Positions 5,390-25,904 of a stretch of 50,624 bases of DNA are shown here, in pieces (positions within the stretch are counted from its first letter, which is position 1; each line of letters opens with the position of its first letter). The notes beneath the pieces were generated by a model that did not search any database, had not been told where the DNA came from, and was given only the letters and a program-made list of their open reading frames with translations. Made by a program: the position numbers and the translations under genes. Origin of the DNA: Bacillota bacterium (GTDB lineage: Bacteria; Bacillota; DTU030); NCBI GenBank assembly GCA_012523785.1, contig JAAYTH010000047.1, forward strand, positions 1 to 50,624, given 5' to 3'.

Positions 5390-5406
5390 TTTAGGGAGGA
5401 TAATCA

Positions 5407-7275: not shown

Positions 7276-7633
7276 TTAGATGTTTGCTTTATGCCGTCCC
7301 GATTGAAAACATCTTTATTTAAAGAAACAGTAACTACTCAACCGCCCGCGTAAGGCATATCTTGTTATCTTTCTTTATATACCCGCAGACTATCTAAATT
7401 GTTATCCTGCGCGTCCAGCCTGTCCAGAGTGAAACAAAGGAAGTGTAGCGGAGGGAGGGCAATGTTCAAAAGAACCTTCCAGCCTAATGCCAAGATCCTC
7501 TGCTCCGCTCCGGGTGACATTGCACGTTGCTGCTGACTAATGACTATTTAACTTTAGCGGCTGTTGTCTAATCTTCACAAAAAAACAATAAAAAGGCTGG
7601 CAACACCGAATATTCATTGGGAGGTGTACCTGG

Positions 7634-8623: not shown

Positions 8624-9933
8624 AAAAACTTCAGCGACTGACCATTGAAAACTTCCAGTCCCATGAATTCACCCAAATTGATTTTTCCCCCGGATTCAAT
8701 GTCATCGTCGGCCAATCGGACCAAGGGAAATCGGCCCTAATTCGAGCCCTGAAGTGGCTTATTTATAATGAGCCCCGGGGTGTTGATTTTATCCGCGTTG
8801 GGGCAACAAGGAGTAGTGTTACCATTCTTTTAACAGATGGCACCCAAATAACGCGGGAACGGACCCCATCCCGAAATCGCTATTATCTTTTAATACCGGG
8901 GCAGGAGGAAAATATCTTTGAAGGGTTCGGATCCCGAGTTCCCCAGGAGATACAAGATGCTCTGGGGATGGGAAAAGTAAAATTGGACGAAGACCTGGAA
9001 AGGATGTTGAATTTAGGCGAACAGCTGGAGGCACCCTTTCTTCTAGCGGAAACTGGTTCTGTAAAGGCCAAGGCCATCGGCCGTCTGTACGGGGTGCATA
9101 TCATTGATGCTGCCCTACGAGAAACAGTGCGGGATATGAGCCGGGCCCAGCAGGAGGAAAAACGCCTCGAAGATCGCCTCCGGCAAGTATCCGGGGATCT
9201 GGATGATTACTCTGACCTTCCCAATTTGGCACAAAAGGTGCAATATTTAAGGCAAAAATTGACGGAACTCAAGGTACTAACGGGACGGCTGGATACCTGC
9301 CGGGGACTTAAACAGAGGAAGGAAGAATTAGACAGTTATATTTTGCGGGCTGAGATAACCATCAAGGGATTGGTGGGGCTGCCAAAATGTGAGGAGTTAA
9401 TAAAAAAGATCGCCTTACTCCGGTCCCGCCATAGTGCCGCTAGGGAATATCGCCGGGAATTAAAGCAGGCCCGGGAAAAGGTCCTGCAGGCAGAAAAAGT
9501 ATTGCAGGCTACCCAAGGTTTAAAAAGGGCGGAAGAGTGGCAGCTGGCGGCCCAAAATTGCCGCCGTATGGGAACAGAACTTGCTAATCTCTACCGGGAA
9601 AATAGAAGGATAGAAGGCCATATCAATAGGGCCCAGGAGATATTGCAGCGGACAAAGGGGATAGAACAAGCTGTAAGGCATTTGGAGCTATACCAGGAAA
9701 AGAGGAAAGAAAGGTCTGTTTTAGAAAAATATCGACAGGAGTTTAGAACTGCCTTTCAACGGGGCAAAGGTGCCGAAGAAGCAATTTTGAATGCAGAAAA
9801 AGCAATTCGTCAATATGGGGATGAATATGGGACTCTGCTGGAGGGGTTGGGTAAATGTCCCCTTTGCTTTAGCGATATAACCCCAGAGACTATTAAAGGG
9901 ATTTTGAGTGAGTATACCGGGGAGGGTAGTTAA
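8620..9933 (+). CDS. Rad50/SbcC-like ATPase, piece 1 of 3: N-terminal ATPase lobe, ascending coiled coil and CxxC zinc hook
   Basis: 437 aa. The N-terminus LTIENFQSHEFTQIDFSPGFNVIVGQSDQGKSALIRAL has an SMC/Rad50-type Walker A. About 250 aa of heptad-rich, charge-rich sequence follow. The protein ends 21 residues after GKCPLCFSDI, a Rad50-hook-type CPxC motif. Confidence 0.75.
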   Translation: MKKLQRLTIENFQSHEFTQIDFSPGFNVIVGQSDQGKSALIRALKWLIYNEPRGVDFIRVGATRSSVTILLTDGTQITRERTPSRNRYYLLIPGQEENIFEGFGSRVPQEIQDALGMGKVKLDEDLERMLNLGEQLEAPFLLAETGSVKAKAIGRLYGVHIIDAALRETVRDMSRAQQEEKRLEDRLRQVSGDLDDYSDLPNLAQKVQYLRQKLTELKVLTGRLDTCRGLKQRKEELDSYILRAEITIKGLVGLPKCEELIKKIALLRSRHSAAREYRRELKQAREKVLQAEKVLQATQGLKRAEEWQLAAQNCRRMGTELANLYRENRRIEGHINRAQEILQRTKGIEQAVRHLELYQEKRKERSVLEKYRQEFRTAFQRGKGAEEAILNAEKAIRQYGDEYGTLLEGLGKCPLCFSDITPETIKGILSEYTGEGS

Positions 9934-10200
9934 TTGGGCTATGAAGAACAACTAGATCAACTTAAAAGGGGCCTCCAACAGGCTCTGCGCCTACGGGCCG
10001 ATGCCGAGACAAAACACAGCTTTTATTTGGAACAACGGGAAAGGATTTTACAAAAGATCAAAGAATTAGGGGTGGAGCCGGAGGAGCTGGACAAGGAAAT
10101 TAGCCGTTTGCAAAGGGAAATGGACCGGCTGTTAAAGGAGGCCGAAAAACTTATTCCTTGGGATTTACTTAAACAGCAGGAAGGTCAGGGGCGAGGGTGA
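9934..10200 (+). CDS. Rad50/SbcC-like ATPase, piece 2 of 3: 88-aa coiled-coil protein
   Basis: TTG start directly after the TAA of piece 1, in the same reading frame. GGGGAGGG lies 7 nt upstream. The sequence is entirely coiled-coil-like (EEQLDQLKRGLQQALRLRADAETKHSFYLEQRERILQKIKELG...). Confidence 0.5.
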   Translation: MGYEEQLDQLKRGLQQALRLRADAETKHSFYLEQRERILQKIKELGVEPEELDKEISRLQREMDRLLKEAEKLIPWDLLKQQEGQGRG

Positions 10201-10207
10201 TAAATAA

Positions 10208-10867
10208 ATGGCAAACTTACTTCAATTACAAAATGCTTTAGTGGATCTAGAAGCCCTTTACCACCAACGGCAGGGGCAGCGGGATCAGCTAGTCAGGGAA
10301 AGAAAAAGGCTACAGCAACAATTGGAGGAGATCATCCTAAAACGTGATTTATTGGATGAGGTACGGATCCTGTTTCAGATGACCTCTGAACATGCCCGGG
10401 AACAGGCACGGCAAACCATCGAATCTATGGTAACCCGGGCCCTCCAATATGTTTTTGGAGCTGACTTAGAGTTTAAAATCCGTATCGAGGAATCCCGGGG
10501 ACGGCCGGAGGCTGAGTTTTATGTGGCCTCAACCTATGGGGGTGAAGATGTTGTGGAGAACCGACCTCAGGATGCCCGGGGGGGTGGAGTGGTAGATGTG
10601 ATTTCCTTGGCCCTACGCCTGGTTCTTCTCCAGAGTACCCGCCCCCTCCTAGAGGGCCCGCTGCTTTTAGATGAACCAGCTAAGCATGTCTCCGATGAGT
10701 TTGCCTTCAATGTGGCGGAATTTTTGCGTGAGCTAGCCCAGGTCTTTGACCGGCAGGTGATTATGGTAACCCACAATCATCAGTTGGCCGGTGTGGCTGA
10801 CAATGCTTTTCGGGTGGAGATGGGGGAAGGAAAAAGTAGGGTTAATCAAGTGGGGGAAATTTTATAG
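10208..10867 (+). CDS. Rad50/SbcC-like ATPase, piece 3 of 3: descending coiled coil and C-terminal ATPase lobe
   Basis: 219 aa with its own RBS (GAGGGTGA) and ATG. The N-terminal 70 aa are coiled coil. These are followed by a signature-motif-like region ARGGGVVDVISLALRLVL, Walker B/D-loop PLLLDEPAKHVS, and a His-switch VMVTHNHQL. Confidence 0.7.
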   Translation: MANLLQLQNALVDLEALYHQRQGQRDQLVRERKRLQQQLEEIILKRDLLDEVRILFQMTSEHAREQARQTIESMVTRALQYVFGADLEFKIRIEESRGRPEAEFYVASTYGGEDVVENRPQDARGGGVVDVISLALRLVLLQSTRPLLEGPLLLDEPAKHVSDEFAFNVAEFLRELAQVFDRQVIMVTHNHQLAGVADNAFRVEMGEGKSRVNQVGEIL

Positions 10868-10988
10868 TGGGAAGGGTTTTCTCGGTGGGCATGTTCTAAG
10901 GTGTGTATAAAAGAAGGATGTCATATAATAGCTAATGGCTGGGGTGTGTTATTGTTATTGTAGTTAAATTCATTTAGGGGTTGATCCT

Positions 10989-13901
10989 GTGTACCATTGG
11001 GAGCAGGAAGGGCTATTTGCCCCGGCTGGTAAACAGCTATTTTTCTGGGGCAGTGGAAGAGAAATGAAGGATTACCTCCGGCAATTTTTAAAAGAAATGC
11101 AGGGGATGGGTCTGGAGCCGGATGAGATATTACTATTGTCACCCTACCGGGAAACAAAGAATGGGCTTAATTATCTTCTTCAGGAAGTATTTGGTGGCCG
11201 GGTAGCCAGACCCCACCTGGCCACCCTTCAGGGATTCTGTTTGGAGTTTTTAAATAGGGAAGGGCACCGCATCGGGTTGGAGGACCGGCCGGAGGTAATT
11301 AGGGGTTGGCAGGAATTTCTCATCCTGAAGAATCTGCTCCCCGGGCTAGTCCCCCAAGGTTATGATCCAACCTTGTGGGAAGAAAATGGACTTGTAGGTG
11401 AGATCCTGAGTTTTTTCAACCACCTTTGGGGACAAGGTATTAACCCAGTGGAATTCCGGCAAAGGGCACATAATTTTTCCGGGCCCCAACTCCTTGATTT
11501 ATCCATTGCTTATTCTAAATATGCCGATTTTTGCCGGCAGAGGGGATACCTCCCCTTGGCGGCCATAGCGCCTCTATCCTTCCAGCTTTTACAAGAACAT
11601 TCCTTCTTGCTGAAAAAATGCCGGGAGGGTAGACGGCTACTCATCGCTACTGATCTGGATCAACTAAAACCAGTTCAACTGCAAATAGTGGAGAGTCTTT
11701 TCGCTGTTTTTCCCTACTCCTTGGGCCTGGCTTTTAAAGGTTCTGGCTTAAGCAAAAAATTAAAGGCCGGGAAATCTGTCCAAGTGATAATGGGGGAAGA
11801 ATTAAAGCGGGAAAAAAAGATACAAGGATACAGTAACGGGGAGATGGAAAACTGGGGTGTGGCCCAGAAGATTGGCCAACTACTGGCAGAGGGGAAATAT
11901 AATCCTGGGGAAATTGCAGTTTTTCTTGGTGACACCTCCCGGGGGCAGCCGCTGATGAAGATTTTGGCCGCCATGGGCATTCCTTGTTATACTAAATTTA
12001 TCGGAGATACACCCTTGGAGCCGGTGTTGAGTTTTTTATCTGATTACCTAGAGGCCTTAATGGAACCGGACAACAATGAGGGGCAGATGAAATGGTTGTC
12101 TTCGCCGCTACTAGGTCTGGATGGTTTATGGTTGCGGCGGGCCTTCTATCGGGCCCAGGAACAGGACCGGCAATTGTTAGATGTGTTGGCTGATACGGGG
12201 AAAAAACCGGTGAAATTTTTCCTTTACCATCTTGAGGGGATTAGGACAGCTTGCATAAGCCCCCTGGAAATAGTGGAAGAATTATATGAAGAATATAATT
12301 TATTTCAGCCCCATGTGGATGGCCCGGGAGAGGGAAAAGGACAGGAGGTCCCGGAACCTTCAAGCAAGCGGCAGGATTTTCTTATGCTGGCGCGGGAATG
12401 TGAAGACCTAAACCACCATTTTAGGGGTAAAGATGCAAGCCTCCAGGAATTTCTGCAGCAACTAGAAGGGGCCTGGCCTTATTTAAAACGGGAAATAAGG
12501 GTTGCTGTGGGCCCAGGGGAAGGGGTTATGTTTGCTCTTATTCGGGATGCCCCTAAGTACATGCCTGGGGCTGCCTTTCTACCCGCAATGGCTGCTAATA
12601 TCTATCCACCCCAACGGATTCCAGCTCCCCTCCTGGGCAAAGGGGAATGGAATGAGCTCCGGGATATTTTTCCCCACTTGGAATTGCCTCCGGATTTTGA
12701 CCCCCGCCGTTTTCATACCGAGCATCGAGTTGCTTTAGAGCGGGGGGCTGCTGCCGCTGATCAGGCTTGGATCAGTTGGGCCCGCTCCTATCCTGAAATA
12801 GAAAAAACCGGGCCCTCGGATCTCTTGAGTGAGAATGTAGAAAAAAGGTATAAAACAGAGTTTAAGGAGGAATACCATTTTACCTGGCCCGATCCCGCTC
12901 CGGGAGCAACTACCAGGGAACGTTTAAGTGATTTTTACTCCCAGCAAATTAGCCGTGGGGGGGCAAAGCCATTGCCCAGGGCCCAGGAGGAGCCGGGCCA
13001 ATTTGGTATTTACCTTAAGAACCTTACTCCTCCCATCGAGGGAAAGAGGATAGCCGCCCAGATCGACTATTTCACCCCTTCCGCTATTAGGACTTATTTG
13101 GCCTGTCCCCGGCGTTATTATTATCAAAACATCCTGAAACTAAAAACTCCCCCCTACCCCCGCGCCCAGTTGGGTTTATTTTTGCACCGGGTCCTGGAGG
13201 TTTTTCACCGCCGTTTTCCCTCCCTGTTTGGTGTTGATGAAGAAATCGCAGGGTCCTATATGGAACAGGTTTTCAAGGAAATATGGCTAGACATGAGGTC
13301 ATCCTTTGGAAAGGGACTTCTATCAGATTTTTACCGGCAGGAAGCCAAATCCATCTGCCGGGCTTACTTGGCCCGGGAATTGCCCAATTGGGAACCGGGG
13401 CGATGGGCCAGGGTGGAAGAAACTATTGATTTCACCTTTAGGGGCAACCGACTACGGGGCCGCTGGGATAGGTTGGATATACTACCCGGTGGTGGTTGGG
13501 AAATAATTGACTACAAGACGGGAAGGGATCAGACAGAAGGGCAGCGTAAAAGGGAATTCCTACCCCGCGAAGGCGAAGGACCGGTGGACATGCAGTTGAT
13601 TATCTATTACCTGGGGGCTAGGAAGAAGGGAATATCCCCGGAGTACTTTACCTGGTATCGACTTTCAGGACTCATAGGCCGAAGTAAGGTAAAACGCAGT
13701 TTGTTCTTTGGGGAGGGGAAGGGTGGTATCACGCCAAGCGATTTGGAAAAGGCCAAGGGGATCCTTACCGAAATATTAGGGGAGATGCGGACAAATGATT
13801 ACCCCCCTAGACCCCGGAATGATCGAATCTGCAAGTATTGTGCCTTCCGATTTCCTTGTCCCGGCTCTCAACCTCTGGAGGAAGGGGAAATAAATGAATA
13901 G
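10989..13901 (+). CDS. addB: AddB-like subunit: degenerate helicase-like N-terminal region plus C-terminal PD-(D/E)XK nuclease with an Fe-S cluster
   Basis: 970 aa. I see no intact Walker A in the N-terminal part. The C-terminus has the AddB/RecB-family pattern: first Cys in YLACPRRYYYQ, nuclease core GRWDRLDIL...WEIIDYKTGR, and a terminal CKYCAFRFPC triad. It overlaps the following helicase gene by 8 nt. Confidence 0.75.
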   Translation: MYHWEQEGLFAPAGKQLFFWGSGREMKDYLRQFLKEMQGMGLEPDEILLLSPYRETKNGLNYLLQEVFGGRVARPHLATLQGFCLEFLNREGHRIGLEDRPEVIRGWQEFLILKNLLPGLVPQGYDPTLWEENGLVGEILSFFNHLWGQGINPVEFRQRAHNFSGPQLLDLSIAYSKYADFCRQRGYLPLAAIAPLSFQLLQEHSFLLKKCREGRRLLIATDLDQLKPVQLQIVESLFAVFPYSLGLAFKGSGLSKKLKAGKSVQVIMGEELKREKKIQGYSNGEMENWGVAQKIGQLLAEGKYNPGEIAVFLGDTSRGQPLMKILAAMGIPCYTKFIGDTPLEPVLSFLSDYLEALMEPDNNEGQMKWLSSPLLGLDGLWLRRAFYRAQEQDRQLLDVLADTGKKPVKFFLYHLEGIRTACISPLEIVEELYEEYNLFQPHVDGPGEGKGQEVPEPSSKRQDFLMLARECEDLNHHFRGKDASLQEFLQQLEGAWPYLKREIRVAVGPGEGVMFALIRDAPKYMPGAAFLPAMAANIYPPQRIPAPLLGKGEWNELRDIFPHLELPPDFDPRRFHTEHRVALERGAAAADQAWISWARSYPEIEKTGPSDLLSENVEKRYKTEFKEEYHFTWPDPAPGATTRERLSDFYSQQISRGGAKPLPRAQEEPGQFGIYLKNLTPPIEGKRIAAQIDYFTPSAIRTYLACPRRYYYQNILKLKTPPYPRAQLGLFLHRVLEVFHRRFPSLFGVDEEIAGSYMEQVFKEIWLDMRSSFGKGLLSDFYRQEAKSICRAYLARELPNWEPGRWARVEETIDFTFRGNRLRGRWDRLDILPGGGWEIIDYKTGRDQTEGQRKREFLPREGEGPVDMQLIIYYLGARKKGISPEYFTWYRLSGLIGRSKVKRSLFFGEGKGGITPSDLEKAKGILTEILGEMRTNDYPPRPRNDRICKYCAFRFPCPGSQPLEEGEINE

Positions 13902-16341
13902 ATATCTAAAGGGGTTAAATCCTGAACAGCGGCAGGCCGTTACCTATCCTTTGGATAAACCCCTTAAGGTGTTGGCCGGGGCCGGAACCGGCAAGACCAG
14001 GGTACTGACCACCAGATATATACATATCCTGGCCCAGGGCGGCAACTGGGCCCCGGAAAACATTTTAGCCTTGACCTTTACCAATAAGGCGGCGGCGGAA
14101 ATGAAAGAACGCATTGTTGATTCTTGCCGGAGGATGAGGATTGCCACTGGCCCTCTGTTTTTGCAAGAGAGCTGGATAGGCACCTTTCATTCCTGCTGCC
14201 ATCGATTTCTGCGGGAACATGCCCTAGGGGCAGGATTAGACCCGGAATTTACTGTTTATGATGAGGCCCGTTCTTGGCTCCTCTATCGGCGGGTGGTGGA
14301 TGAATTTTTATCCGCTAAGGGGGCAGTGCCGGAGGGCTTTGTCCTTACTGATCTCAATTTCTACGTAAAGGATGTCTATTTCCTCATCAATCGCCTGAAG
14401 GACAGCCTTATCTATCCAGATGATTACCAGCAGATGGTCAGAGAAGAAAATAATAAATATTATGACCGCTGGGGGGAGCTCTTAATGGGTTTAGGTGATA
14501 TGGAGCTACACCCGGCAACCCGGAAGGTTTTAATGGAGAGGGGCGAGGAGGCCCGGGAACAATCGGCTTGGGAGGGGGATCTCATCCAGGTCACCAATTT
14601 TTTGTTTTCTGCCTATCAAGAGGCACTGGCAGCAGCAAGGGCCCTTGATTTTGCTGATCTCATCTATTATACCTACCGGCTTTTACGGGACAATGTGGCC
14701 CTGGGAGAGGAGTGCCGACACCGATTTGCCTATATTTTGGTGGATGAATTTCAGGATACCAATAGGGCCCAATTTGCCCTTTTGCGCCTTTTGGCCCGGG
14801 ATGAAAAAATGTCTAATGTAACGGTAGTGGGGGATGAAAGACAGGCCATATATGGTTGGCGGAATGCCCGGATAGAAAATGTGAGGGAATTTGCGGCCCG
14901 GGAGTGGGGGGGTGAAGAGATAAGATTGCACACAAATTACCGTTCCTATCAGCAAATACTAGATCTAGCCCAGTTTAGTATGGAAAAATCCCCCCATTTG
15001 CTGCAGGATAATTCGCCCCTCCGGGCCCAGCGGGGAGTTGCCCCTGGGCCCCGCATCAGTTTGGCACTGGCCCAGGATAGGGGAGAGGAAGGAAACATAA
15101 TTGCCGCCGCCATTGGTGAACTCCTAAAGCAGGGGATGAGGGCTGAAGATATAGTAATTCTTCTGCGCAGCCCCCGCTGGGCCCAACCCTACGAGGGTGC
15201 CCTGCGCCTAAGGGGTATCCCCTTTCAGACCGTCGGCGGTGTGGGTTTTTATGATCGGGAAGAAATTAAAGATCTTTTGGCTTACCTGCGGGTTATTACC
15301 AACCCCTACGACGACCTGGCCTTGGTACGGGCCCTCATGGCCCCGCCTTGTTTTTGCAGTGATGCCGATTTGGCACAGATATGCCAATTGCAAAAACGGC
15401 GGGAGGGGATTGGAGGGGAAGAGGTCCATTTATATGATATCCTGCGCGGAGTGTTAGTGGAACCTGAAATTCCCCCGGCGGTAAGAAAGAAGGTGGAAGT
15501 CTTTTTGGCGCTGGGGGAAGGACTTATTGAATTACAAGATAAGATGTCACTGACAGATTTTTTGAACCAGATTCTACAAAGGACCGCCTATCTTAACTAT
15601 GTTTATGCTAACCCACCAGATGAAGTTCGCCGTCGAATTGGCAATATCAAGAAACTCTTTTCCCTCGCTTCCCAAATAGATCCGGGAACAGCTGCTGAAT
15701 TTATCCGTTATGCGGAATTCTTTTCGGAAAATGATCTACGGGAAGGCGAAGAAGCGGCCGGGTATAGGGATGCTGTCACCATAATGAGTGTCCACCAGGC
15801 CAAGGGTTTGGAGTTTCCCTATGTTTTTTTACCCAATCTCACGGATACTAATTTCCCCGTCCGGGCCCCTTACCCCAATTTAGATTACAGTGAAGATCTG
15901 GGATTAATTATAAAAAAGGACCGGTTGGGAAGGGATATGGCAAAATTTGCCCCCCATAATTATGATAAAGAAAATTATCGAGATATTTATAACCACTTTG
16001 GGATTATTAGTTACAAAGATAGACAGCGGGAAGAACAGCTACAGGAGGAGCGCCGTCTTTTTTATGTGGCCCTGACCAGGGCCCAAGAGGGGCTGTATTT
16101 GACTTGTCCTAAACCTTTCCCAAAAAGATCCCGGGGGCCCCATTTCTTCCGGGAAATCTGGGAAGGATATGAGCCGGCGGAAAAAATTGTGGGGCAGAAG
16201 GTTCAAGGTCCGGCGGGAGATGAAGACCCTTTGCTAGACTGGAAGCCGGGAGAGCTGCAGCAATACCATGAGGTTTTGTCAAAGTGGCTAGAGCTAGGAA
16301 AAAGGATTTTTACCGCTTCTGACAAATTTTTGCCAAAATAG
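13894..16341 (+). CDS. UvrD/PcrA/AddA-type superfamily 1 helicase with no recognisable C-terminal nuclease domain
   Basis: 815 aa. Motifs: LNPEQRQAV, Walker A AGAGTGKTRVLT, TFTNKAAAEM, ILVDEFQDTN, VGDERQAIYGWRNA, TNYRS, VTIMSVHQAKGLEFPYVF, LFYVALTRAQEGLYL. The protein ends about 90 aa after the last helicase motif. Confidence 0.9.
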   Translation: MNRYLKGLNPEQRQAVTYPLDKPLKVLAGAGTGKTRVLTTRYIHILAQGGNWAPENILALTFTNKAAAEMKERIVDSCRRMRIATGPLFLQESWIGTFHSCCHRFLREHALGAGLDPEFTVYDEARSWLLYRRVVDEFLSAKGAVPEGFVLTDLNFYVKDVYFLINRLKDSLIYPDDYQQMVREENNKYYDRWGELLMGLGDMELHPATRKVLMERGEEAREQSAWEGDLIQVTNFLFSAYQEALAAARALDFADLIYYTYRLLRDNVALGEECRHRFAYILVDEFQDTNRAQFALLRLLARDEKMSNVTVVGDERQAIYGWRNARIENVREFAAREWGGEEIRLHTNYRSYQQILDLAQFSMEKSPHLLQDNSPLRAQRGVAPGPRISLALAQDRGEEGNIIAAAIGELLKQGMRAEDIVILLRSPRWAQPYEGALRLRGIPFQTVGGVGFYDREEIKDLLAYLRVITNPYDDLALVRALMAPPCFCSDADLAQICQLQKRREGIGGEEVHLYDILRGVLVEPEIPPAVRKKVEVFLALGEGLIELQDKMSLTDFLNQILQRTAYLNYVYANPPDEVRRRIGNIKKLFSLASQIDPGTAAEFIRYAEFFSENDLREGEEAAGYRDAVTIMSVHQAKGLEFPYVFLPNLTDTNFPVRAPYPNLDYSEDLGLIIKKDRLGRDMAKFAPHNYDKENYRDIYNHFGIISYKDRQREEQLQEERRLFYVALTRAQEGLYLTCPKPFPKRSRGPHFFREIWEGYEPAEKIVGQKVQGPAGDEDPLLDWKPGELQQYHEVLSKWLELGKRIFTASDKFLPK

Positions 16342-16384
16342 TATTTGTATGGTATTATTATGGTGATGTTAAAATAAAAACAAA

Positions 16385-16490
16385 TAATCTCCGAGCCTGA
16401 TTAGCCTAAAGGTGTAAAGCCCAGGGTACCAGGCCGCTAGGGTACACCGGAAACGGTGCTGCCTCCCGGAATTATGGAAAGGAGATGGCG
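16385..16490 (+). promoter_or_regulatory. Candidate molybdenum/tungsten cofactor (Moco RNA motif) riboswitch aptamer
   Basis: As I recall them, the conserved Moco-motif blocks occur in the expected order. They are CTCCGAGCC (16389-16397), CCTAAAGG (16405-16412), GCCTCCC (16461-16467) and GGAAAGGAG (16476-16484). CTCC and GGAG can close a P1 stem. There is a 5-bp hairpin capped by a GAAA tetraloop (CACCG-GAAA-CGGTG, 16445-16458). Tetraloop-receptor-like halves are present: CCTAA(A)G and TATGG (16473-16477). No covariance-model search was run. Confidence 0.55.
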
Positions 16491-16504
16491 ATATAGAAGT
16501 TTTT

Positions 16505-16535
16505 AAAACGTCTTCTCCAAGACGTTTTTTCTTTT
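16505..16535 (+). terminator. Intrinsic terminator forming the expression platform of the leader
   Basis: AAAACGTCTT (16505-16514), loop CTCC, AAGACGTTTT (16519-16528), then TTCTTTT. An alternative pairing exists between GGAGATGGCG (16481-16490, including the 3' half of the proposed P1) and CGTCTTCTCC (16509-18). That pairing has 8 Watson-Crick pairs plus 1 G-U out of 10 and would act as an antiterminator. Confidence 0.75.
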
Positions 16536-16620
16536 GTCTGTCTATTTTTCCTTGCCAGCCCTCTGTCCCTCGCCTTCACCCGATGGAAGAATAATTATCA
16601 CTAGTTTGGGGTGTTTTGTT

Positions 16621-18132
16621 GTGGTTCACATTAATAAAAGTGTTATTTCCCGCTGCCTACTTGTTATTTTGGCTACCTTTATGTTTGCCAGCTTATTGGC
16701 CCTTGCCCTAACACCGCTTGTGGAGGCTGCCAGCGGTGATCTGGAAATAACCGGCCCTGGTCTTAATGGGAGAAGAATTATTATCAGCCAAGGCCAGTTG
16801 CGGGGCACAGAACCCCTATTTTTCCCGGATGGTACAATGGTTGAACAAGAGGAAGAATGGTACAGTGCTATCAATACTTGGCCCAGTAAGATCTGGTACC
16901 GGGGTCAGGGCATCAAGTTGAGGGACCTTCTCAGAGCTGCCGGCGGGGTTAATGAACAGGCTACACTTATCAAGTTTACTGCTAGGGATGGTTTAACTAT
17001 GACCTTTACCCTAGAGGAGTTAATAAATGAACCCGCCTATCGTTTCCCCAATTTTATGGATGGTGGTTTAGAGGGCCATCTTCCCGGTGATCCTTCGGGG
17101 GCAGTACAGGTGGAACCCCTCCTCGCCCATAAGAGTTTTTCCCATCATAAAAAACTAACAATTATGACGGAAGAAAATGAATTAACTGGCAGTGATGCCC
17201 CCCATCTCCTCTTTGGACAGCGGGCGATAACCCAACAAAACAATGCCCGTTTTATCAAGCAGGTAACAAAAATTGAGATACTTACAGATGAAATTGATAA
17301 ATGGGACAAGCCCAGCGTTTCTCCGGCCCCGGGGTTAGTGGCGGCCGGAACCTTGGTGAAACTTTGCGGGCCCTATGGGGATGAAGATAAGGTTCACTAT
17401 ACTATAGATGGCAGCAAGCCAGGCCTAGGGAGCCCTATGTATAACCTGGTTGCCAGCCGCTGGTGGTCCTCCCGCCGCGATTTAGATGACATCAACCGCC
17501 CCATAGAAATTACTGAGGACACAACTATTAAGGCTGTGACAATTGGGCCTGGTAAAGCAGATAGCGATATTGTCAGCTTTATCTTTAGGGTAAAAGAAGA
17601 CGAGGAAGAGACAGGCAAAACCCTTACTGATATTAATGGTCATTGGGCCCAAAATAATATCATTAAACTTGTTAACCGCGGTGCCATCAGTGGCTATATC
17701 GATGGCACCTTTAGGCCAGATCATATTATTACCAGGGCCGAGTATGTTACCGTGCTTTTGAAGGCCTTTCAAATGGAGGGAGAGGGGGAAAGGGTGTTTG
17801 CCGATACAAAATCCCATTGGGCCAAGGGATATATCGCTGCAGCGGTAGCTAAGGGTATTGACGACGGATATGACAGCACTACCTTTGGCCCCGATGATGT
17901 TATTACCCGGGAACAGATGGCAGTAATGGTGGCCCGGGCGGCCAATTTGGCAGCCCCTGGGAATAGGATTTCCTTTGCCGACGGAGATAAGATTTCCCCC
18001 GGGGCTGTGGACAGGGTGGCGGCGGCGGTGGAAAAAGGCATAATTAGGGGATACCCTGACAACACCTTCCGCCCCCAAGGCAGTGCCAGCAGGGCTGAGG
18101 CCGTTACCATTATTACCCGGGCACTGCCCTAG
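16621..18132 (+). CDS. Secreted surface protein, paralog A: SUOX-fold molybdopterin-binding-like domain, then a chitobiase/hexosaminidase-C-like (Fn3-associated) domain, then 3 SLH domains
   Basis: The ORF-track start at 16534 lies inside the terminator. I therefore prefer the in-frame GTG at 16621, which has GGGGTG 7 nt upstream. Signal peptide: CLLVILATFMFASLLALALTPLVEAASG. Motifs: LEITGPG...YSAINTWPSKIWYRGQGIKLRDLL...FTARDG...LLFGQRAITQQ...KIEILT. Also VHYTIDGSKPGLGSPMYN. The C-terminal repeats are SLH-type: HWAQNNIIKLVNRGAISGYIDGTFRPDHIITRAEY, SHWAKGYIAAAVAKGI, ISPGAVDRVAAAVEKGIIRGYPDNTFRPQGSASRAEA. Confidence 0.85.
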   Translation: MVHINKSVISRCLLVILATFMFASLLALALTPLVEAASGDLEITGPGLNGRRIIISQGQLRGTEPLFFPDGTMVEQEEEWYSAINTWPSKIWYRGQGIKLRDLLRAAGGVNEQATLIKFTARDGLTMTFTLEELINEPAYRFPNFMDGGLEGHLPGDPSGAVQVEPLLAHKSFSHHKKLTIMTEENELTGSDAPHLLFGQRAITQQNNARFIKQVTKIEILTDEIDKWDKPSVSPAPGLVAAGTLVKLCGPYGDEDKVHYTIDGSKPGLGSPMYNLVASRWWSSRRDLDDINRPIEITEDTTIKAVTIGPGKADSDIVSFIFRVKEDEEETGKTLTDINGHWAQNNIIKLVNRGAISGYIDGTFRPDHIITRAEYVTVLLKAFQMEGEGERVFADTKSHWAKGYIAAAVAKGIDDGYDSTTFGPDDVITREQMAVMVARAANLAAPGNRISFADGDKISPGAVDRVAAAVEKGIIRGYPDNTFRPQGSASRAEAVTIITRALP

Positions 18133-18241
18133 CAAACAATAGTAACTGCTTAGTGGCACCCACTGATGTCATTCTGGGCAAAGCGAAGGATCAGGGCCAT
18201 GGTTATTAATCAGACAGCAGAAGGGCCAGGGGAAGGAAGTT

Positions 18242-19846
18242 ATGATGGGTTTTACTAGAATATTGGCAGCAAATCATAAAATATCAGCGTCGGCCCTATT
18301 CCTACTGCTGTTCTTTTTTTTGCTTCCATCTGCCTCCGCCAGTGCCGAACCTGGTGGGGCCTTGGAAATCATTGGCCCTGGGGTGGAAACCCCCGGGACA
18401 TTTAAGCTCTCTGAACTGGAGGCCAGGGAGCAATATGAACATATTTACAGTGCTGTAAATACCTACCCCACCAAGCAGTGGTATGTAGCCCGGGGTGTTT
18501 TATTAAAAGATTTGCTTGGGTCCCTTGGCCTTAGGGATGAGGCAACCCTAATCCGTTTTTATTCCCAGGATGGCTATGATGTTGTTTTTACGGTACAAGA
18601 ATTGCTGGTGGACAAGCGCTACTATTTCCCTAAATTAAAGGACAATCATCCCAGTGATGGAAGTGTTCCCGGGTCTTCAGAAGATGCGGAAGAGGTAGAA
18701 ACAATTTTAGCCCTGGTCAGTGCTGAGGGAAGTGATAACCCGGAACATATGAATACAAAGGATACCCTACAGCTTATCCTGGGACAGCGGGCAGTGACGG
18801 AACAAGTAAGCACCTTGTTTGTGAAAAACATAAACAAGATTGAGGTACTAACCAAAGAGCTGGAACAATGGGATCGGCCGCGGATGAATGTGCCGGAGGG
18901 TTTTGTGCTGCCTCCGGGGGCAAAATTAATTTTACAGAACAAGAACTCTGATACCGACAAAATTTATTATACTATTGATGGCAGTACCCCCACTGTGGAT
19001 AGTCCCATGTTTAACTGGAGTGCCAGCCGCTGGTGGCCTCTGCGGGGAGATCTGGATAAGATCAATGCCCCCCTTAAAATTACAGATGACATCTTAAAAG
19101 ACCATGATAAACAAACCCTCACCATTAAGGCCCGGACCATAGGGCCGGGAAAGAAAGATAGCGATATAGTCACCTTTACCTTCTATATAGATCCTGACGC
19201 AGTTGATCCCACATTGGAGACAGGGGGGCCTACTACTGGGGTTTTTCTTGATCGGCAGGAGATTGAACTCCCGGTTGGAGGCACCTTCCAATTGGAGGCT
19301 AGGGTGGAACCTTTTAATGCGGACAACAAACATTTGATCTGGCGTTCCAATGATACCACGGTGGCCGTGGTAGATACCCAAGGTTTGGTGACAATGGTGG
19401 GTACAGGCAGTGCTGTTATCACCGTTGAAACTGTGGAAGGGGGCCACAGGGCTACTTGTCTTATCAATGGTACAGGTGGGGAAGAGGAGGATAAGATTGA
19501 AGTCGAGGAATACCTTGTGGAAGGGGATAATAATGTAAAAGCAGATCCCGTCGAAGGCGGGGGGGTAGATCCTGCTGAAACTGCCCCGTCCCCTGTGTCC
19601 GATGAAAGGTTATCCACAGATAGGTGGCAATACCTGATAAGCAGAGATGAATTATCTAGCCCAACAATAGATGGAACTCCGGGGAAAGAACAAGCCCCTT
19701 TAGGGCAACAAATATTTGCGATGTCGGTGGTAAATCCCACCCCCTTACAGGCGGATAACCATGAATTATCCACCACCTTGATTTTTCTATTTTTACTTCT
19801 TTCCGGTGCTGGTATAAAATACAGCGAATATGTGAAGGAGCTATAG
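18242..19846 (+). CDS. Secreted surface protein, paralog B: same N-terminal two-domain core, then a Big_2-like Ig domain, a low-complexity linker and a C-terminal transmembrane anchor
   Basis: Signal peptide: ALFLLLFFFLLPSASASAEPGG. Core motifs: YSAVNTYPTKQWYVARGVLLKDLL, YSQDGY, LILGQRAVTEQ, KIEVLT, IYYTIDGSTPTVDSPMFN. Big_2-like segment: LPVGGTFQLEARVEPFNADNKHLIWRSNDTTVAVVDTQGLVTMVGTGSAVITV. C-terminal hydrophobic tail: TTLIFLFLLLSGAGI followed by KYSEYVKEL. Confidence 0.85.
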   Translation: MMGFTRILAANHKISASALFLLLFFFLLPSASASAEPGGALEIIGPGVETPGTFKLSELEAREQYEHIYSAVNTYPTKQWYVARGVLLKDLLGSLGLRDEATLIRFYSQDGYDVVFTVQELLVDKRYYFPKLKDNHPSDGSVPGSSEDAEEVETILALVSAEGSDNPEHMNTKDTLQLILGQRAVTEQVSTLFVKNINKIEVLTKELEQWDRPRMNVPEGFVLPPGAKLILQNKNSDTDKIYYTIDGSTPTVDSPMFNWSASRWWPLRGDLDKINAPLKITDDILKDHDKQTLTIKARTIGPGKKDSDIVTFTFYIDPDAVDPTLETGGPTTGVFLDRQEIELPVGGTFQLEARVEPFNADNKHLIWRSNDTTVAVVDTQGLVTMVGTGSAVITVETVEGGHRATCLINGTGGEEEDKIEVEEYLVEGDNNVKADPVEGGGVDPAETAPSPVSDERLSTDRWQYLISRDELSSPTIDGTPGKEQAPLGQQIFAMSVVNPTPLQADNHELSTTLIFLFLLLSGAGIKYSEYVKEL

Positions 19847-19851
19847 TCAAA

Positions 19852-20505
19852 ATGAATGGGCCCATATTGATCTACCTCAAGGATATGCTTCACGGCATTG
19901 CTAGCGGCCTATTAATACCAACCATAATCATCCTTATCTGCTTTTTGGCCTTGTCAGTGGTGGAATTAGGCGGTTTGCTAGTAGAAATCATAATGGAAAG
20001 ACGTCGGGAAAAAACAAATGTACCCCAATTAATAAGTGCCCTGCCGGGAAAAGGTGCTGTGGAGATAATGGCTAAAATAGAACAAAGCTCCCTTTTTCTT
20101 CGGCAGAAGGAAGTTATTGCCGAGATAATCCGCCATAGGGAATTGCCATCTGCTTCTTTGCGCGCCCTGGCTCGACGCCTTCTATCGGCAGAGGAAAGCC
20201 ATTTTACCAGCATAACTGATAGAACTGATCTAGTGGCCCGCTTGGCCCCTATGTTGGGCCTAATGGGCACCCTTATACCCCTAGGACCGGGCATAATTGC
20301 CCTGGGTCAAGGTGATACCCAAACCCTGGCCAGTTCCCTGCTCATTGCCTTTGATACCACTGTAGCAGGCCTGGCCGCCGCTGGCGTTGCCTACGGCATA
20401 TCCCGGCTGCGGAAAAGATGGTATGAGGAGCAGATCAATACATTGGCAGCACTGTTGGAAAGTTTGCTGGAGGTGTTTGAAAATGGACGGGGGCTTGCGG
20501 AATAG
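19852..20505 (+). CDS. MotA/TolQ/ExbB-family proton-channel protein
   Basis: 217 aa. There is an N-terminal TM segment (LLIPTIIILICFLALSVVELGGLLV). The C-terminal two-TM channel core is LAPMLGLMGTLIPLGPGIIALGQGD...LLIAFDTTVAGLAAAGVAYGISRL, typical of MotA_ExbB. The gap to the preceding gene is 5 nt. Confidence 0.85.
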   Translation: MNGPILIYLKDMLHGIASGLLIPTIIILICFLALSVVELGGLLVEIIMERRREKTNVPQLISALPGKGAVEIMAKIEQSSLFLRQKEVIAEIIRHRELPSASLRALARRLLSAEESHFTSITDRTDLVARLAPMLGLMGTLIPLGPGIIALGQGDTQTLASSLLIAFDTTVAGLAAAGVAYGISRLRKRWYEEQINTLAALLESLLEVFENGRGLAE

Positions 20506-20815
20506 AAGGTACAGCGGCCTTGGAAGGAAGGAAGACATCAATCCCCTGGAAGGGGTCATCAATGTTGCCGATATCATGCTGGTTTTTGCCTGTGGTTTGA
20601 TGTTGGCCTTGGCTGTCTATTGGAATATTGATCTGGGCCCGGTAGGGGAACGAATTGATCTCCACAAGGGGCAGGAAATGACAGAGGACCCAAAAATACG
20701 GGACGATTTGGTGGAAAGTCCGGACCAGGGCGGCAGGTATGAACGGGTTGGTACTGTATACAAGGACCCGGCCACGGGACAGCTTTTTATGCTCACTGAA
20801 GGTGAGGGAAAATAG
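20483..20815 (+). CDS. Small single-pass membrane protein, DUF2149-like / ExbD-TolR-analogous partner of the preceding channel protein
   Basis: I chose the ATG at 20483, which has GGAGGTG 7 nt upstream and overlaps the upstream gene by 23 nt. The sequence MDGGLRNRRYSGLGRKEDINPLEGVINVADIMLVFACGLMLALAVYW resembles the ExbD/TolR N-terminal pattern (short charged tail, INxxPhxDVxhVhhhhh TM helix). A soluble tail follows (YERVGTVYKDPATGQLFML). The family assignment is from memory. Confidence 0.6.
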   Translation: MDGGLRNRRYSGLGRKEDINPLEGVINVADIMLVFACGLMLALAVYWNIDLGPVGERIDLHKGQEMTEDPKIRDDLVESPDQGGRYERVGTVYKDPATGQLFMLTEGEGK

Positions 20816-20894
20816 TTTTTCCCCGCCGCTAAAGTACATATTCGGATGGTGTTGTGTAAACCCAACAATATAAAAAAGGGGGAGAACAGGGCCC

Positions 20895-22274
20895 ATGGTA
20901 TCAAATAAAAAAGACACTACCCTAGTTGCAAGGCCGGCCCCGGACCCGGGGAAAAAACTTTATTTATTTGGTCCCTTGTTTTTTCTTGTTGCCGGGGTTC
21001 TATTGTTTTCCTTGGTACTGGATCTATCCTTGGGGGCGATGGTTTTTGCTAGCCCCGATTCCCTGATAATTGCCGGGGAAGGGGTGAAGGAGGAAGTGAT
21101 CTTTACCCGGGAAGAATTAGAGGAAATGGAACGGGAGCAATGTCTTTACAGTTCTATAAATACTTGGCCCACCAAGAAGTGGTATGTGGGAGAAGGAATA
21201 AAGCTTATGGATTTGCTCCACCAGGCGGGCCTCAAAAAAGAGGCCACCCTCTTGAGATTCACCGCAGCCGATGGTTTTACCGTGGATTTAACTTATAAGG
21301 AGTTGTTTGAAGACCAGCGTTACTGTTTTCCCAATTTTAAGAAAGGGGCCGCCAGTGGGGAGGGACATGTACCCGGCAGTGCATCTAATGCTGTGGCAGT
21401 GGAACCCATCATTGCCCTTTATGCCGTGGAGGGAAGCAGTGACCCCGAATATATGAGTACCCTATATTCACCCCAGCTGATGTTAGGGCAACGGGCAGTG
21501 ACAGAGCAGACGGGAAACTTATTTGTCAAGTACTTACATAAAATTGAGGTTCTTACCGATGACCTAGAACGGTGGGATGTGCCCCGGGGAAACCCTCCGG
21601 CGGGCCAGGTACCCAAGGGCAGCATGGTAGCCTTGAGCAATGATAACTGTGATGATGACAAGATTTATTACACCCTGGACGGCAGCACCCCCACCATTAA
21701 CAGTCCCATGTACAACTGGATTGCCAGCCGCTGGTGGTCAACCCGGGCGGAAGAATTAGGCACCATCAACCATCCCTTGGGGCCTCTAGTGGAGGACACC
21801 ACCATTAAGGCTGTTACCATTGGTCCCGGCAAGTTGGACAGCGAAGTGGCTGTTTTCCACTATCGGCTGGAAGGTGGGGAAGGGGATAAGGGAACCACCA
21901 TCCTTTTGACCATTGGTGAATATGAAGTTGATGTGGATGGTGAAATTATTTACCTAGATGCTGTCCCCTTTATCAAGCCCGGTGTCGACCGCACCCTGGT
22001 ACCGATACGTTTTATTGCCAAAGCCTTTGGTGTTGATATTGCTTGGAATCCCGAGGCCAGGCTAGTTATCATCAGCCTGGATGGTAAGGAGGTGGTCCTG
22101 GAGATCAACTCTAGCCAAGTGTATGTCAACGGGCTAGCCCGGACCATTGAATGTCCAGCTGAATTGCATCCTCCGGGCCGCACCTTTGTACCCCTGCGTT
22201 TTATCAGCGATATTTTGGGGGCCAAAAGTGTAGATTATGATGGGGAAAGCAGGCAGATAAGTATTATTTGGTAA
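20895..22274 (+). CDS. Surface protein, paralog C: N-terminal TM/signal anchor, the same two-domain core, and a C-terminal copper-amine-oxidase-N-like (stalk) domain
   Basis: TM segment: LYLFGPLFFLVAGVLLFSLVLDLSLGAMVFA. Core motifs: YSSINTWPTKKWYVGEGIKLMDLL, FTAADGF, LMLGQRAVTEQ, KIEVLT, IYYTLDGSTPTINSPMYN. The C-terminal segment is DRTLVPIRFIAKAFGVDIAWNPEARLVIISLDGKEVVLEINS...GRTFVPLRFISDILGAKSVDYD, which is the Cu_amine_oxidN1-type repeat pattern. Confidence 0.85.
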   Translation: MVSNKKDTTLVARPAPDPGKKLYLFGPLFFLVAGVLLFSLVLDLSLGAMVFASPDSLIIAGEGVKEEVIFTREELEEMEREQCLYSSINTWPTKKWYVGEGIKLMDLLHQAGLKKEATLLRFTAADGFTVDLTYKELFEDQRYCFPNFKKGAASGEGHVPGSASNAVAVEPIIALYAVEGSSDPEYMSTLYSPQLMLGQRAVTEQTGNLFVKYLHKIEVLTDDLERWDVPRGNPPAGQVPKGSMVALSNDNCDDDKIYYTLDGSTPTINSPMYNWIASRWWSTRAEELGTINHPLGPLVEDTTIKAVTIGPGKLDSEVAVFHYRLEGGEGDKGTTILLTIGEYEVDVDGEIIYLDAVPFIKPGVDRTLVPIRFIAKAFGVDIAWNPEARLVIISLDGKEVVLEINSSQVYVNGLARTIECPAELHPPGRTFVPLRFISDILGAKSVDYDGESRQISIIW

Positions 22275-22376
22275 GGAAGCGGTTTGTTTTACAACCGTGT
22301 CTATTTTTTTGCTGGGGAGGTGATGTATCCGTTTTGCTTATGTCACCCGGGTAAAATATTATCAGGAGGTAGTAAT

Positions 22377-25300
22377 ATGCCAAAAAAGGTGAATAGGATA
22401 TCTGTACAGAAGGTTTTATCACTTATCTTGGGGTTACTTTTGCTTTTGAGTGGGGCTGGACAATTGACGGTACTTCCCGCCCGGGCCGCCGGAATGGAGG
22501 TACTTTATGAAGGACGGATTGACTTGCCAGCGGGCGAAACCTTTGCTGTAACAGCCTATAACTCAGGGGTATCTTATACGGTGGACATGGATACTCCCTT
22601 GGGGGCCCTCCAAATAGCGGGAGACCTGGCAGGCTTTGAGTATGATGTTACCGACAAGAACATTGATGCCTCGGGTGCCTTATTGCTGGACAATGTGGGC
22701 CAATATGAGCGGAAACCGGGCTATTGGTATGCTTATGTCAATGGTGCCTACAAGGATGGTTTTAACAATCCCGCCGGGGCCCTGAACCTTATTAAGCTCA
22801 CTAATGGCGATGAAGTTGAATTCTATTATGCTGCCGATGTAAAGGGCAAAGAAGAAGATTTAGCTGCTGTTCAAGGGGCTGCCATAGCAGCGGTCATAGC
22901 CCACATAGGAACAGATGGGGCAGCGGTTACGGATACAGGGGAAAAGACAGATGTGGATGTCACCCAAGATGACTGGACCCTGCAGCTTTCAGGTGCCCGG
23001 GAAGAAACGGTTAGCAGGAGCTACTTTGAAGAGGGATTAGCCTGTCATTCAAGCCATCAGGTGTTTTGGACCGATGAGGATGGCAATGAATGGGGTGGGG
23101 TACCCCTTTGGCTCTTGGTGGCCATGGTGGATGACGATCCGGATGAAGGATCGGCCCATTACAACTTTAATGATGAACTGGCAAATGAAGGCTATACCAT
23201 CGACGTTATTGCCGGTGATGGTTGGAAGGCTACCCTCGCTAGTGCAGACATCGCCCGGGATGATGGCTATATTATTGCCAACACCTTAAATGGCAAACCC
23301 CTGCCCAAGGAAACGCCGGGGGGTAAAGACTGCTGGCCCCTCCATTTAAAGGGAGAAAAGATCTTTGGTGGCCAACAGGTGGGTAACATTGTCCGCATTG
23401 AACTGACCGGCCTGCCAAAACCAGTAGAAGGATGGACATTAGAGCTGGTGGGTAAGGTTGGAGATTCCATCACCCAGGAAGAATTTGAAAAGGGGCAAGT
23501 CTGTATCGGGACCAAGGACCACTATGCCGAGTGGACCGATAATGAAGGGAAAGTTTGGTCCGGTACCCCCCTATGGATATTGGCCGGTGCTGTAGATGAT
23601 ATTGAAGAAAGCACCCATTGGACCTTTAATGATGTCGTGGCCCAGGAGGGTTATACCATACGCGTAGAGGCCGAAGACGGATTTTCCAGGACTTTTTCCA
23701 GCCAAGATGTGGCCCGCAGTGGCGACTACATTGTTGCCGATCGGGTAGATGGTAAACCTCTTTCTGCCAAACACTGGCCCCTCCGTCTTGTCGGTCCTGG
23801 TGTGACCAAAGAGGATGGTTCCCTGGGTGGGGCCGCTGTCGGCAACATTGTTAAAATTACAATTCCCGAATTGCTTACGCCGGCGGCGGAGGGGGGCTCT
23901 TGGAATCTTACCCTTACCGGTGCAATTGACTATATCATGTCCCAGGCAGAATTTGAAGAGGGCCTAGCCTGCCATAAAAAAGAATGGATAGATGCCGAGG
24001 GCCAAGTCTGGTCCGGGATGCCCCTTTGGTACTTGGCGGGTTGGGTAGATGATAAGGTACCCCACGATTTTAATGTCAATCTGGCTAATGCCGGGTATAC
24101 AATCCATGTCAAGGCGGAGGATGGCTATACCAAGGATTTTGCCAGTCAAGATGTGGCCAAGAGCAGTGACTATATACTGGCCAATGAAGTAGATGGTGAA
24201 CCCTTAACTGAATCCTGGCCCCTACGCTTGGTCGGTGACGGTGTAGCTACAGATGGTTCCTTAGGTGGTCACAGTGTAGGTGGTGTGGCGACTGTAGCCT
24301 TGACTGATTTTGAGGCAGAAACGCCTGTACCAGAAATTCGGATCATAAAATACGGCGAAGATGGCCAAACCGTTCTGGCTGAGGAGACAGTAACCTACCA
24401 GTGGATGGAGGAAAACTTGGAAGTAATTGGTGATGGAAAAACTGTTTACAGATATGAAGGAATCATTTTTGACCCCGAAGATGAATGGGGTGATAATATT
24501 GCTGTCCCGAAGGATTTCAAAATTGAGAATGCCGTAAAGGGTACCCGGGTCAAGGATTTAGTGGAACTTGTCGGAGGGATGGGGGCTGGGACCGAAATTG
24601 TTTTTGTGGCCAAGGATGGCTGGGAAACCAGGTTACCCTATTCCAGTATTTATACAGACCCAATGGTGCAGGAACGTCAGGGTGACGCCATTCTGGCATG
24701 GTATTCCGATGGCGAATATGTACCCGACTACGCTGGAATTCGCCTCTTCTTTACCCCCGGTGGGGATCATATCTACCGGCAAAAAGATATGCGGGACACC
24801 CTTCCGGAGGCTTACTGGCACTATTACGGTAAGGGCGGTACATTACTTCCCTCCTGTGCCGGTTTATCGGCAAAATGGCTTGCGGAGGTTTGGGTTTATT
24901 CTATGCCGGAAAAGGATTGGACACTGAAGTTGGATGGCAGGGAGATCGGTGGGCTGGAATATGAGGTGAGCAAAACCTATTGGGAGCAGGGTCTGACCTG
25001 TCAGTTTGGTGCCAACCATAAGTCTTCTTACACCGATGATAAAGGACGGGTGTGGGAGGGAATGTCCCTTTGGCTTTTGGCCGGATTTGTCGATGATGAG
25101 GATCAGCACTCCGACCATGCCTTTAACACTGCGCTGGCCGAGGCTGGTTACAATATCCTCCTCACTGCTGCTGACGGTCATTCTGTGACGGTCCACAGCA
25201 CCGATATCATACGAAATAAGGATTATATTGTGGCCAGTATGTTAGATGGCCGAGCTATGTCAGAAGATGATAAACACTGGCCCCTGCGTTTGGTGGGCCC

Positions 25301-25865: not shown

Positions 25866-25904
25866 ATGCAAAAGGCAAGCAGTAGGGTTTTATGCTAAAG
25901 GATG

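Follow-up and report, generated by a model that had tools for sequence, protein, structure and literature searches.

Locus and identity of the leader RNA

We analysed 50,624 nt of the forward strand of contig JAAYTH010000047.1 from a Bacillota bacterium (assembly GCA_012523785.1), a stretch referred to below as the window. Eleven plus-strand genes separated by short gaps occupy 16621-31792, and a leader lies between them and the end of the upstream addA gene (stop 16341). A first-pass annotation had described this leader as an aptamer resembling the molybdenum cofactor (Moco) motif, coupled to a terminator/antiterminator switch. The covariance models of all 4227 Rfam families were therefore scanned over the whole window, the check that the annotation itself had named. 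RF01055 (Moco RNA motif; Molybdenum/Tungsten riboswitch aptamer) matched at 16377-16500 on the plus strand over its full length (model positions 1-135), with 64.9 bits and an E value of 2e-13, which is 29 bits above the curated gathering score of 36 bits. No second Rfam family was matched anywhere in the window, hence none that competes at the leader, and the proposed class was borne out. Our own covariance model, R1, which was built from 42 regex-seeded sequences and an Rfam-derived structure, gave the window aptamer 80.5 bits. The 164-nt leader was more stable than 200 of 200 dinucleotide shuffles (z = -3.26). The leader is a real member of the known molybdenum/tungsten-cofactor riboswitch family RF01055 and belongs to its P3-less subgroup. 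The RNA is a further case of a riboswitch class described in 2008, and its mechanism has close published precedents.

Anatomy of the aptamer

The helices P1, P2, P4 and P5 are all present in the window aptamer (Table 1), including P2, of which no convincing version had been drawn by eye. The P3 stem is absent: in the Rfam alignment of the window aptamer, model positions ~61-73 are deleted. This is the tungsten-cofactor-type form in the P3 comparison that the annotation had suggested. The sequence blocks that it had listed were recovered in order at their positions (CTCCGAGCC at 16389, CCTAAAGG at 16405, GCCTCCC at 16461 and GGAAAGGAG at 16476), and its CACCG-GAAA-CGGTG tetraloop hairpin lies within P4 at 16445-16458. 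The conserved blocks of the multistem junction, CCGAG, CCUCCC and GGAAAGG, are present in the window and invariant in 42 relatives. The receptor-like elements had been only half correctly placed. The 5' half, CCUAAA (16405-16410), is real, whereas the TATGG at 16473-16477 is made up of the P5 loop and 3' strand, a pentamer that occurs 80 times in the window. The true 3' half is CCAGGGU at 16421-16427 in place of the usual YAUGG, the sole such case among the 70 related RNAs described below. The GAAA loop is intact in the window and kept in 67 of the 70 relatives.

Table 1 Features of the leader, the downstream genes and multiple aptamers in related loci
Feature	Position	Strand	Details
Predicted promoter, sigma-70-like	16330-16358	+	TTGCCA, 17 nt, TG-extended TATTAT; predicted transcription start ~16365; consensus match only
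P1 5' strand	16387-16392	+	AUCUCC; pairs with GGAGAU 16481-16486; Rfam alignment and folding
P2 hairpin	16395-16434	+	GCCUGAU/ACCAGGC, GCC/GGU, AGGU/GCCC, loop GUAAA; Rfam alignment
Tetraloop-receptor-like internal loop of P2	16405-16410, 16422-16425	+	CCUAAA, CAGG
Junction in place of the missing P3	16435-16439	+	CGCUA; Rfam alignment
P4 hairpin	16440-16464	+	GGGUACACCG-GAAA-CGGUGCUGCCU; GAAA tetraloop 16450-16453
P5	16465-16466, 16476-16477	+	CC with GG; loop CGGAAUUAU; Rfam alignment
J5/1	16478-16480	+	AAA
Switching strand	16481-16490	+	GGAGAUGGCG; 16481-16486, P1 3' strand; 16481-16490, antiterminator 5' strand
Intrinsic terminator	16505-16535	+	stem 16505-16514/16519-16528, 10 pairs; loop CUCC 16515-16518; U tract 16529-16535 (TTCTTTT)
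Antiterminator 3' strand	16509-16518	+	within terminator 5' arm and loop
Ribosome-binding site	16608-16613	+	GGGGUG; 7 nt upstream of start GTG 16621
Gene 1	16621-18132	+	secreted; Cys-less SUOX-fold domain, Fn3_assoc/CHB_HEX_C, three SLH repeats
Gene 2	18242-19846	+	SUOX-fold domain and Big_2
Gene 3	19852-20505	+	MotA/ExbB
Gene 4	ORF 20387-20815	+	DUF2149; likely start ATG 20483
Gene 5	20895-22274	+	SUOX-fold stalk-domain protein
Gene 6	22284-25865	+	1193 aa, SLH-anchored; tandem Oxidored_molyb-like modules; PF00174 64 bits
Gene 7	within 26020-31792	+	purple-acid-phosphatase-like metallophosphoesterase
Gene 8	within 26020-31792	+	small SUOX-fold lipoprotein-like protein; PF00174 24.1 bits
Gene 9	28179-29315	+	ECF S component, PF09819
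Gene 10	within 26020-31792	+	fused A-A ATPase; TIGR04520 316 bits, cut-off 315
Gene 11	within 26020-31792	+	ECF T component, CbiQ-type
Tandem/triple aptamers in relatives	L056:7245-7707; L052:7394/7567; L040:1968/2136; L046:8717/8905		
Further tandem aptamers in relatives	L043:8485/8666; L055:6088/6255; L034:6094/6259; L026:9422/9646		
aa, amino acids; ECF, energy-coupling factor; ORF, open reading frame; SUOX, sulfite oxidase.

A terminator and a competing antiterminator

The aptamer is followed by a clean intrinsic terminator, as first noted by eye and now recovered by an independent scan; its hairpin alone has a folding energy of -8.9 kcal/mol. The complementarity that had been pointed out between the switching strand GGAGATGGCG (16481-16490) and CGTCTTCTCC (16509-16518), which covers the 5' arm and loop of the terminator, is real, with 9 of 10 positions paired and -11.7 kcal/mol. 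A slightly longer version of this duplex reaches -14.5 kcal/mol against -7.7 +/- 2.3 for composition-preserving shuffles, and 1% of the shuffles of the switching strand attain that value. Without the aptamer, the remaining 3' part adopts the antiterminator fold (-15.9 kcal/mol). The minimum free energy structure of the full leader contains P1 and the terminator (-52.9 kcal/mol), and enforcing the antiterminator gives -50.9 kcal/mol, a gap of 2 kcal/mol. Two near-isoenergetic, mutually exclusive folds that share the 3' strand of P1 have the look of a transcriptional OFF riboswitch, in support of the mutual exclusion and the OFF response deduced in the first-pass annotation.

The predicted promoter agrees with the consensus at 10 of 12 positions, overlaps the end of addA and is the single promoter-like site in 16000-17000. 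Downstream, the listed open reading frame of the first gene begins at a TTG (16534) in the terminator tail, and the true start had rightly been expected further on: a public gene call (P0001) is 100% identical to the 503-amino-acid product of 16621-18132, which places the start at GTG 16621, directly followed by a Sec-type signal peptide.

Conservation in related loci

Relatives were sought with the first downstream protein, taking one genome per species, and 64 loci were obtained (best protein identity 67%) from Pelotomaculum, Syntrophomonadaceae, Syntrophomonas, Desulfotomaculaceae, Sporotomaculum, Desulfoscipio, Dethiobacter and Thermovorax. R1 found 70 homologous RNAs in these loci, every one of them on the gene strand, and of the relatives tested with RF01055 itself, 13 of 13 and 5 of 5 exceeded the gathering score. 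Across the 70-RNA alignment, 83.7% of the cells held standard pairs compared with 69.5% in shuffles, and 25 of 33 pairs changed on both sides. The covariation score was 0.427 against 0.194 for shuffles (0 of 500 reached it), and it fell to 0.148 or less when the partners were slid by 1-3 columns. The support extended to every helix: in P1, 4 of 6 pairs changed on both sides (90.5% of cells paired); in P2, 8 of 10 and 4 of 4 pairs covaried; in P4, 8 of 11 did (91.5% of cells paired); and in the two-base-pair P5 one pair turned from CG to UA in 7 relatives. The covariation among homologues that had been put forward as a check was thus found in P1, P2, P4 and P5. Compensatory changes in P1 and P4 were present already in an unfitted MAFFT/RNAalifold run, which was otherwise set aside since it did not recover P2 and wrongly joined the invariant G/C columns 22-23 to 111-112.

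The switch is conserved along with the aptamer. In each of the 11 closest orthologous leaders we find GGAGAYG..., ACGUCUUCUCC, the 3' arm and a U tract. The CUCC loop of the terminator, which has no role in the hairpin, is conserved or compatibly changed, for example to CUUC with G-U pairing in L007. More distant relatives use other sequences with the same logic, for example GGAGCC..., which pairs with ...GGCUUC in the 5' half of the terminator (-12 to -17 kcal/mol). A terminator-like hairpin followed 60 of the 70 aptamers but only 20 of 207 random segments of the same loci; the simple finder used for this count picked the wrong hairpin in L005 and none at L011:9646, and the alignment shows the orthologous terminator in both.

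In these relatives the riboswitch stands before SUOX-fold genes in 43 of the 70 cases, before the ECF S component in 15, before the phosphatase in 4 and before the small SUOX protein in 2. A second riboswitch about 8 kb into the cluster is common among them. A counterpart inside the window operon was rejected: Rfam and R1 gave no match there, and the gap between genes 5 and 6 is 10 nt. Relatives often carry two or three P3-less aptamers in tandem ahead of the same cluster, mostly each with a terminator of its own, and the window has one. Tandem and triple arrangements and terminators have likewise been reported for this class (PMC2408646). Riboswitches of other classes were also seen upstream: a cobalamin riboswitch (106 bits) at L017:2099-2277, 1.5 kb ahead of the Moco-type riboswitch, and a SAM riboswitch (85 bits) at L011:2106-2237.

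The downstream gene cluster

No convincing internal terminator was found across the eleven genes. The phosphatase, small SUOX and ECF genes keep a constant order wherever the flank of a related locus extends that far, and the order of genes 7-11 recurs in L033, L035, L044 and L059; these genes would be co-transcribed with the leader. The MotA/ExbB gene occurs alongside a SUOX gene in 50 of the 64 loci and the DUF2149 gene in 51. A DUF2149 protein together with a MotA/ExbB protein is reported from the haem-uptake operon hmu of Porphyromonas. The DUF2149 frame as listed (TTG 20387) overlaps MotA/ExbB by 119 nt; the in-frame ATG 20483 would give a protein of ~110 amino acids with one transmembrane segment, similar to an ExbD partner, and a short overlap of the usual kind.

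PDB sequence searches with the SUOX-like domains returned nothing relevant (the profile led to a hexosaminidase Fn3-like piece, gene 6 to SLH only and gene 8 to nothing), so a fold comparison was needed. The AlphaFold (AF2) model of the gene 1 domain has a pLDDT of 83.7, and its top Foldseek matches in the PDB, all with probability 1.00, are SorA, YedY, SorT, nitrate reductase and PruR; the YedY set includes the tungsten-cofactor form 1xdy. Canonical SUOX enzymes need a Cys to hold molybdenum. No conserved Cys was found among 45 sequences of the module type of genes 1, 2, 5 and 8, and the domains of genes 1, 2 and 8 contain no Cys at all. PruR, which also lacks the molybdenum-ligating Cys, binds free pterins (PMC11194511). 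The modules of gene 6 carry an invariant Cys in the motif FE.GLAC..H..WTD..W.G.PLW, present in 71 of 71 homologous modules. It is unusual for one Sec-exported, SLH-anchored protein to have several putative cofactor sites, and the N-terminus of gene 6 bears a weak DUF4430/transcobalamin-like piece.

Exported bacterial members of the SUOX family such as YedY/MsrP and SorA have a twin-arginine signal peptide and are exported with the cofactor bound. No twin-arginine (RR) motif was found in the signal peptides of genes 1, 2, 5, 6, 7 and 8, and these proteins therefore probably leave the cell unfolded, with no cofactor inserted beforehand in the cytoplasm.

The ECF S component, the A ATPases and the T component are encoded together. 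The S component exceeds the usual length by ~180 amino acids, with an extra transmembrane segment at about residues 225-256; its C-terminus forms an extracytoplasmic domain that bears a weak similarity to the SUOX-like modules (hhalign E 8e-4). In some relatives a further gene separates the riboswitch from the ECF S component, either one for an ApbE flavin transferase (L056:7797-8855) or one for a TupA-like binding protein (L014:2117-3034), a hint at a redox step or a link to tungstate in the system.

Proposed mechanism of control

Taken together, we consider it very likely that 16377-16535 is an mRNA leader in which a P3-less riboswitch for Moco or tungsten cofactor (Tuco) and a terminator exert OFF control over the eleven-gene cluster, with Tuco as the most likely ligand. 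A transcript would start from the promoter at ~16330-16358. When the cofactor (a pterin, most likely of the tungsten type) is bound, the aptamer would hold P1 closed (16387-16392 with 16481-16486), the hairpin 16505-16528 and its U tract would form, and transcription would stop before GTG 16621. When ligand is missing, 16481-16490 would pair with 16509-16518, this antiterminator pairing would block the terminator, and polymerase would read into the cluster at 16621-31792. Ligand-dependent termination is well supported as a deduction from the two folds and their conservation. We infer which ligand is bound, in which direction the switch responds in vivo, how far the transcription unit reaches and what the cluster does.

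Close precedents for this arrangement are the Tuco riboswitches of focA and fetABC1 in Eubacterium limosum (PMC11725836), which belong to RF01055, have P1, P2, P4 and P5 without P3 and, as here, combine a hairpin and poly-U tract with a competing antiterminator in a predicted OFF switch. Their genes go up when tungsten is limiting. The downstream genes differ, being a formate/nitrite-type channel and an iron ABC transporter in E. limosum, and SUOX-fold surface proteins, ExbB/DUF2149 and an ECF transporter here. The Moco riboswitch of Escherichia coli moaA shares the family, the junction nucleotides, the GAAA tetraloop of P4 and repression by cofactor, the last of which is predicted for the window. 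Unlike the window RNA, it has a P3 stem, carries the ribosome-binding site inside P1 and acts on translation, does not respond to tungsten cofactor and controls molybdopterin biosynthesis.

Several points weigh against the proposed reading. Ligand binding and termination are predictions in this leader. The antiterminator duplex is imperfect, containing one G-U pair and one U-U mismatch, and the atypical receptor 3' half (CAGGG for UAUGG) could weaken the docking of P2 and P4. The covariation was read from an alignment that a covariance model had fitted to the structure, which tilts the pair counts towards that structure, and the loci were gathered through the downstream gene, which biases the strength of the gene association. 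To our knowledge, no member of the class has been demonstrated to bind Moco or Tuco in vitro, because the ligand is too labile for routine binding assays. The absence of P3 is a marker of tungsten specificity by correlation, and deletion of P3 from the E. coli RNA abolished regulation (PMC2408646). If the cofactor-binding proteins downstream are enzymes, placing them under an OFF switch runs counter to intuition.

Alternative readings of the leader

The aptamer, though real, might act by translation, through Rho or as an ON switch instead of through the terminator and antiterminator. Many members of the family do target the ribosome-binding site, E. coli moaA and the E. limosum wor and tup RNAs among them (PMC11725836 for E. 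limosum), and 10 of the 70 relatives have no detectable terminator. In the window, however, the ribosome-binding site lies ~120 nt past P1 and ~75 nt past the terminator, and no predicted pairing involves it; because of this distance from every switching helix, translational control is unlikely and was rejected. The terminator is canonical and conserved, and the strand shared by P1 and the antiterminator gives OFF logic, while an ON switch would need P1 to compete with the terminator, which is not the case. Control of another kind is thus highly improbable. We give even less credence to the idea that the hairpin 16505-16528 terminates the upstream addBA operon and that the aptamer is a relic in decay whose receptor is damaged. 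It would fit the unique 3' half of the receptor, and the addA stop and the hairpin have no further predicted terminator between them. Yet addA or addB was not found nearby in any of the 64 loci, so the hairpin belongs to the leader and not to the upstream operon; the orthologous leaders keep terminator and antiterminator all the same. The score well above the gathering value, the intact helices and the promoter between addA and the aptamer also oppose a relic.

The same riboswitch and OFF mechanism could answer to Moco or to a metal-free pterin precursor, with the loss of P3 being just a structural variant, and we regard this as rather unlikely. It draws on the correlative nature of the link between P3 and tungsten, on a protein fold known from molybdenum enzymes and on the window itself, within which no tungsten-specific gene was found. 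It also draws on Syntrophomonas wolfei. Regulski et al. divided the class in 2008 into RNAs with and without P3, the latter of which they found to go with tungsten-cofactor metabolism, and listed as unexplained exceptions two P3-less RNAs before genes for putative Moco-using sulfite oxidases in S. wolfei (PMC2408646). These cases, for which that study gave no operon analysis, have the same subtype and the same kind of downstream gene as the window. On the other side, 69 of the 70 relatives are P3-less, and P3-less RNAs precede TupA-like PBP_like_2 proteins (L043:2476, L014:1852) as well as the SUOX-fold clusters, whereas the sole P3-bearing aptamer (L062:14264-14408, 94.9 bits) precedes an ABC transporter with a ModA-like SBP_bac_11 protein; the TupA-like and ModA-like labels are those of the Pfam families alone. 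The E. limosum work of 2024 described P3-less Tuco riboswitches, two of them with terminators, whose operons rise under tungsten limitation (PMC11725836), and the fold match to E. coli YedY includes its tungsten-cofactor form. On these correlations, tungsten cofactor appears the most likely ligand of the P3-less leader.

Possible role of the cluster

We propose tentatively, as one possibility, that the cluster lets anaerobic Bacillota (Pelotomaculum, Syntrophomonas, Desulfotomaculaceae, Dethiobacteria) acquire tungsten or pterin cofactor at the cell surface. The chief competing idea is a redox machine outside the cell that depends on tungsten or molybdenum and is loaded there. Riboswitches that are repressed by their ligand are nearly always found ahead of genes for the synthesis or import of that ligand or of a precursor. 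Acquisition leads because it would bring together a ligand-repressed switch, an ECF transporter, an ExbB-like pair, Sec export and Cys-less pterin-fold modules. Under the acquisition proposal, the wall-anchored SUOX-fold modules, both the Cys-less PruR-like type and the tandem type with the invariant Cys, would capture external pterin cofactor or a tungsten species and pass it to the ECF transporter, whose S component has an extracytoplasmic domain of its own; the ExbB/DUF2149 proton-channel pair and the phosphatase would assist. ECF-mediated cofactor trafficking is reported for flavins in Listeria, which offers a precedent (PMC9973259).

PruR (PDB 7kom, 7kos, 7kp2; PMC11194511) is the nearest protein for comparison, since both it and the Cys-less modules of the cluster are secreted SUOX-fold domains without the molybdenum-ligating Cys; the gene 1 domain matches it in Foldseek with a TM-score of 0.58-0.65, normalised to PruR. 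In Proteobacteria, PruR occurs as a small signalling protein that stands alone and is paired with a cyclic di-GMP enzyme (PMC11194511). The SUOX-fold domains of the window, by contrast, are joined to cell-wall anchors, with linkage to ExbB/DUF2149 and ECF genes, and pterin binding by them is a candidate property. A 2007 survey noted fusions of SLBB and sulfite oxidase domains in Syntrophomonas and called them extracellular enzymes (PMC1796856). Our literature search found no paper on the cluster or on a link of Moco riboswitches to ECF transporters, DUF2149 or cofactor salvage.

If the acquisition proposal is true, the cluster would be the first bacterial salvage route for Moco, Tuco or their precursors and would account for the sulfite oxidase exceptions for which the class description of 2008 had no explanation. 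The RNA itself is one more well-documented case of transcriptional OFF control in the P3-less branch, and it comes with 70 related sequences that show covariation and conserved antiterminators. The main value lies in the uncharacterised conserved cluster to which the RNA points, a testable lead on the supply of tungsten or pterin cofactor in strictly anaerobic, syntrophic Bacillota.

Flanking genes

Elsewhere in the window, the minus strand at 533-3970 encodes the large subunit of a ribonucleotide reductase with an intein (LAGLIDADG homing-endonuclease domain) and a C-terminal TSCPD domain. The plus strand at 4373-16341 carries a run of genes for DNA-end processing: NurA, a HerA-like ATPase, an Mre11-like phosphoesterase, Rad50/SbcC-like pieces, AddB and AddA. 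The Rad50/SbcC-like ATPase pieces, at 8620-9933 and 10208-10867, are possibly one split gene.

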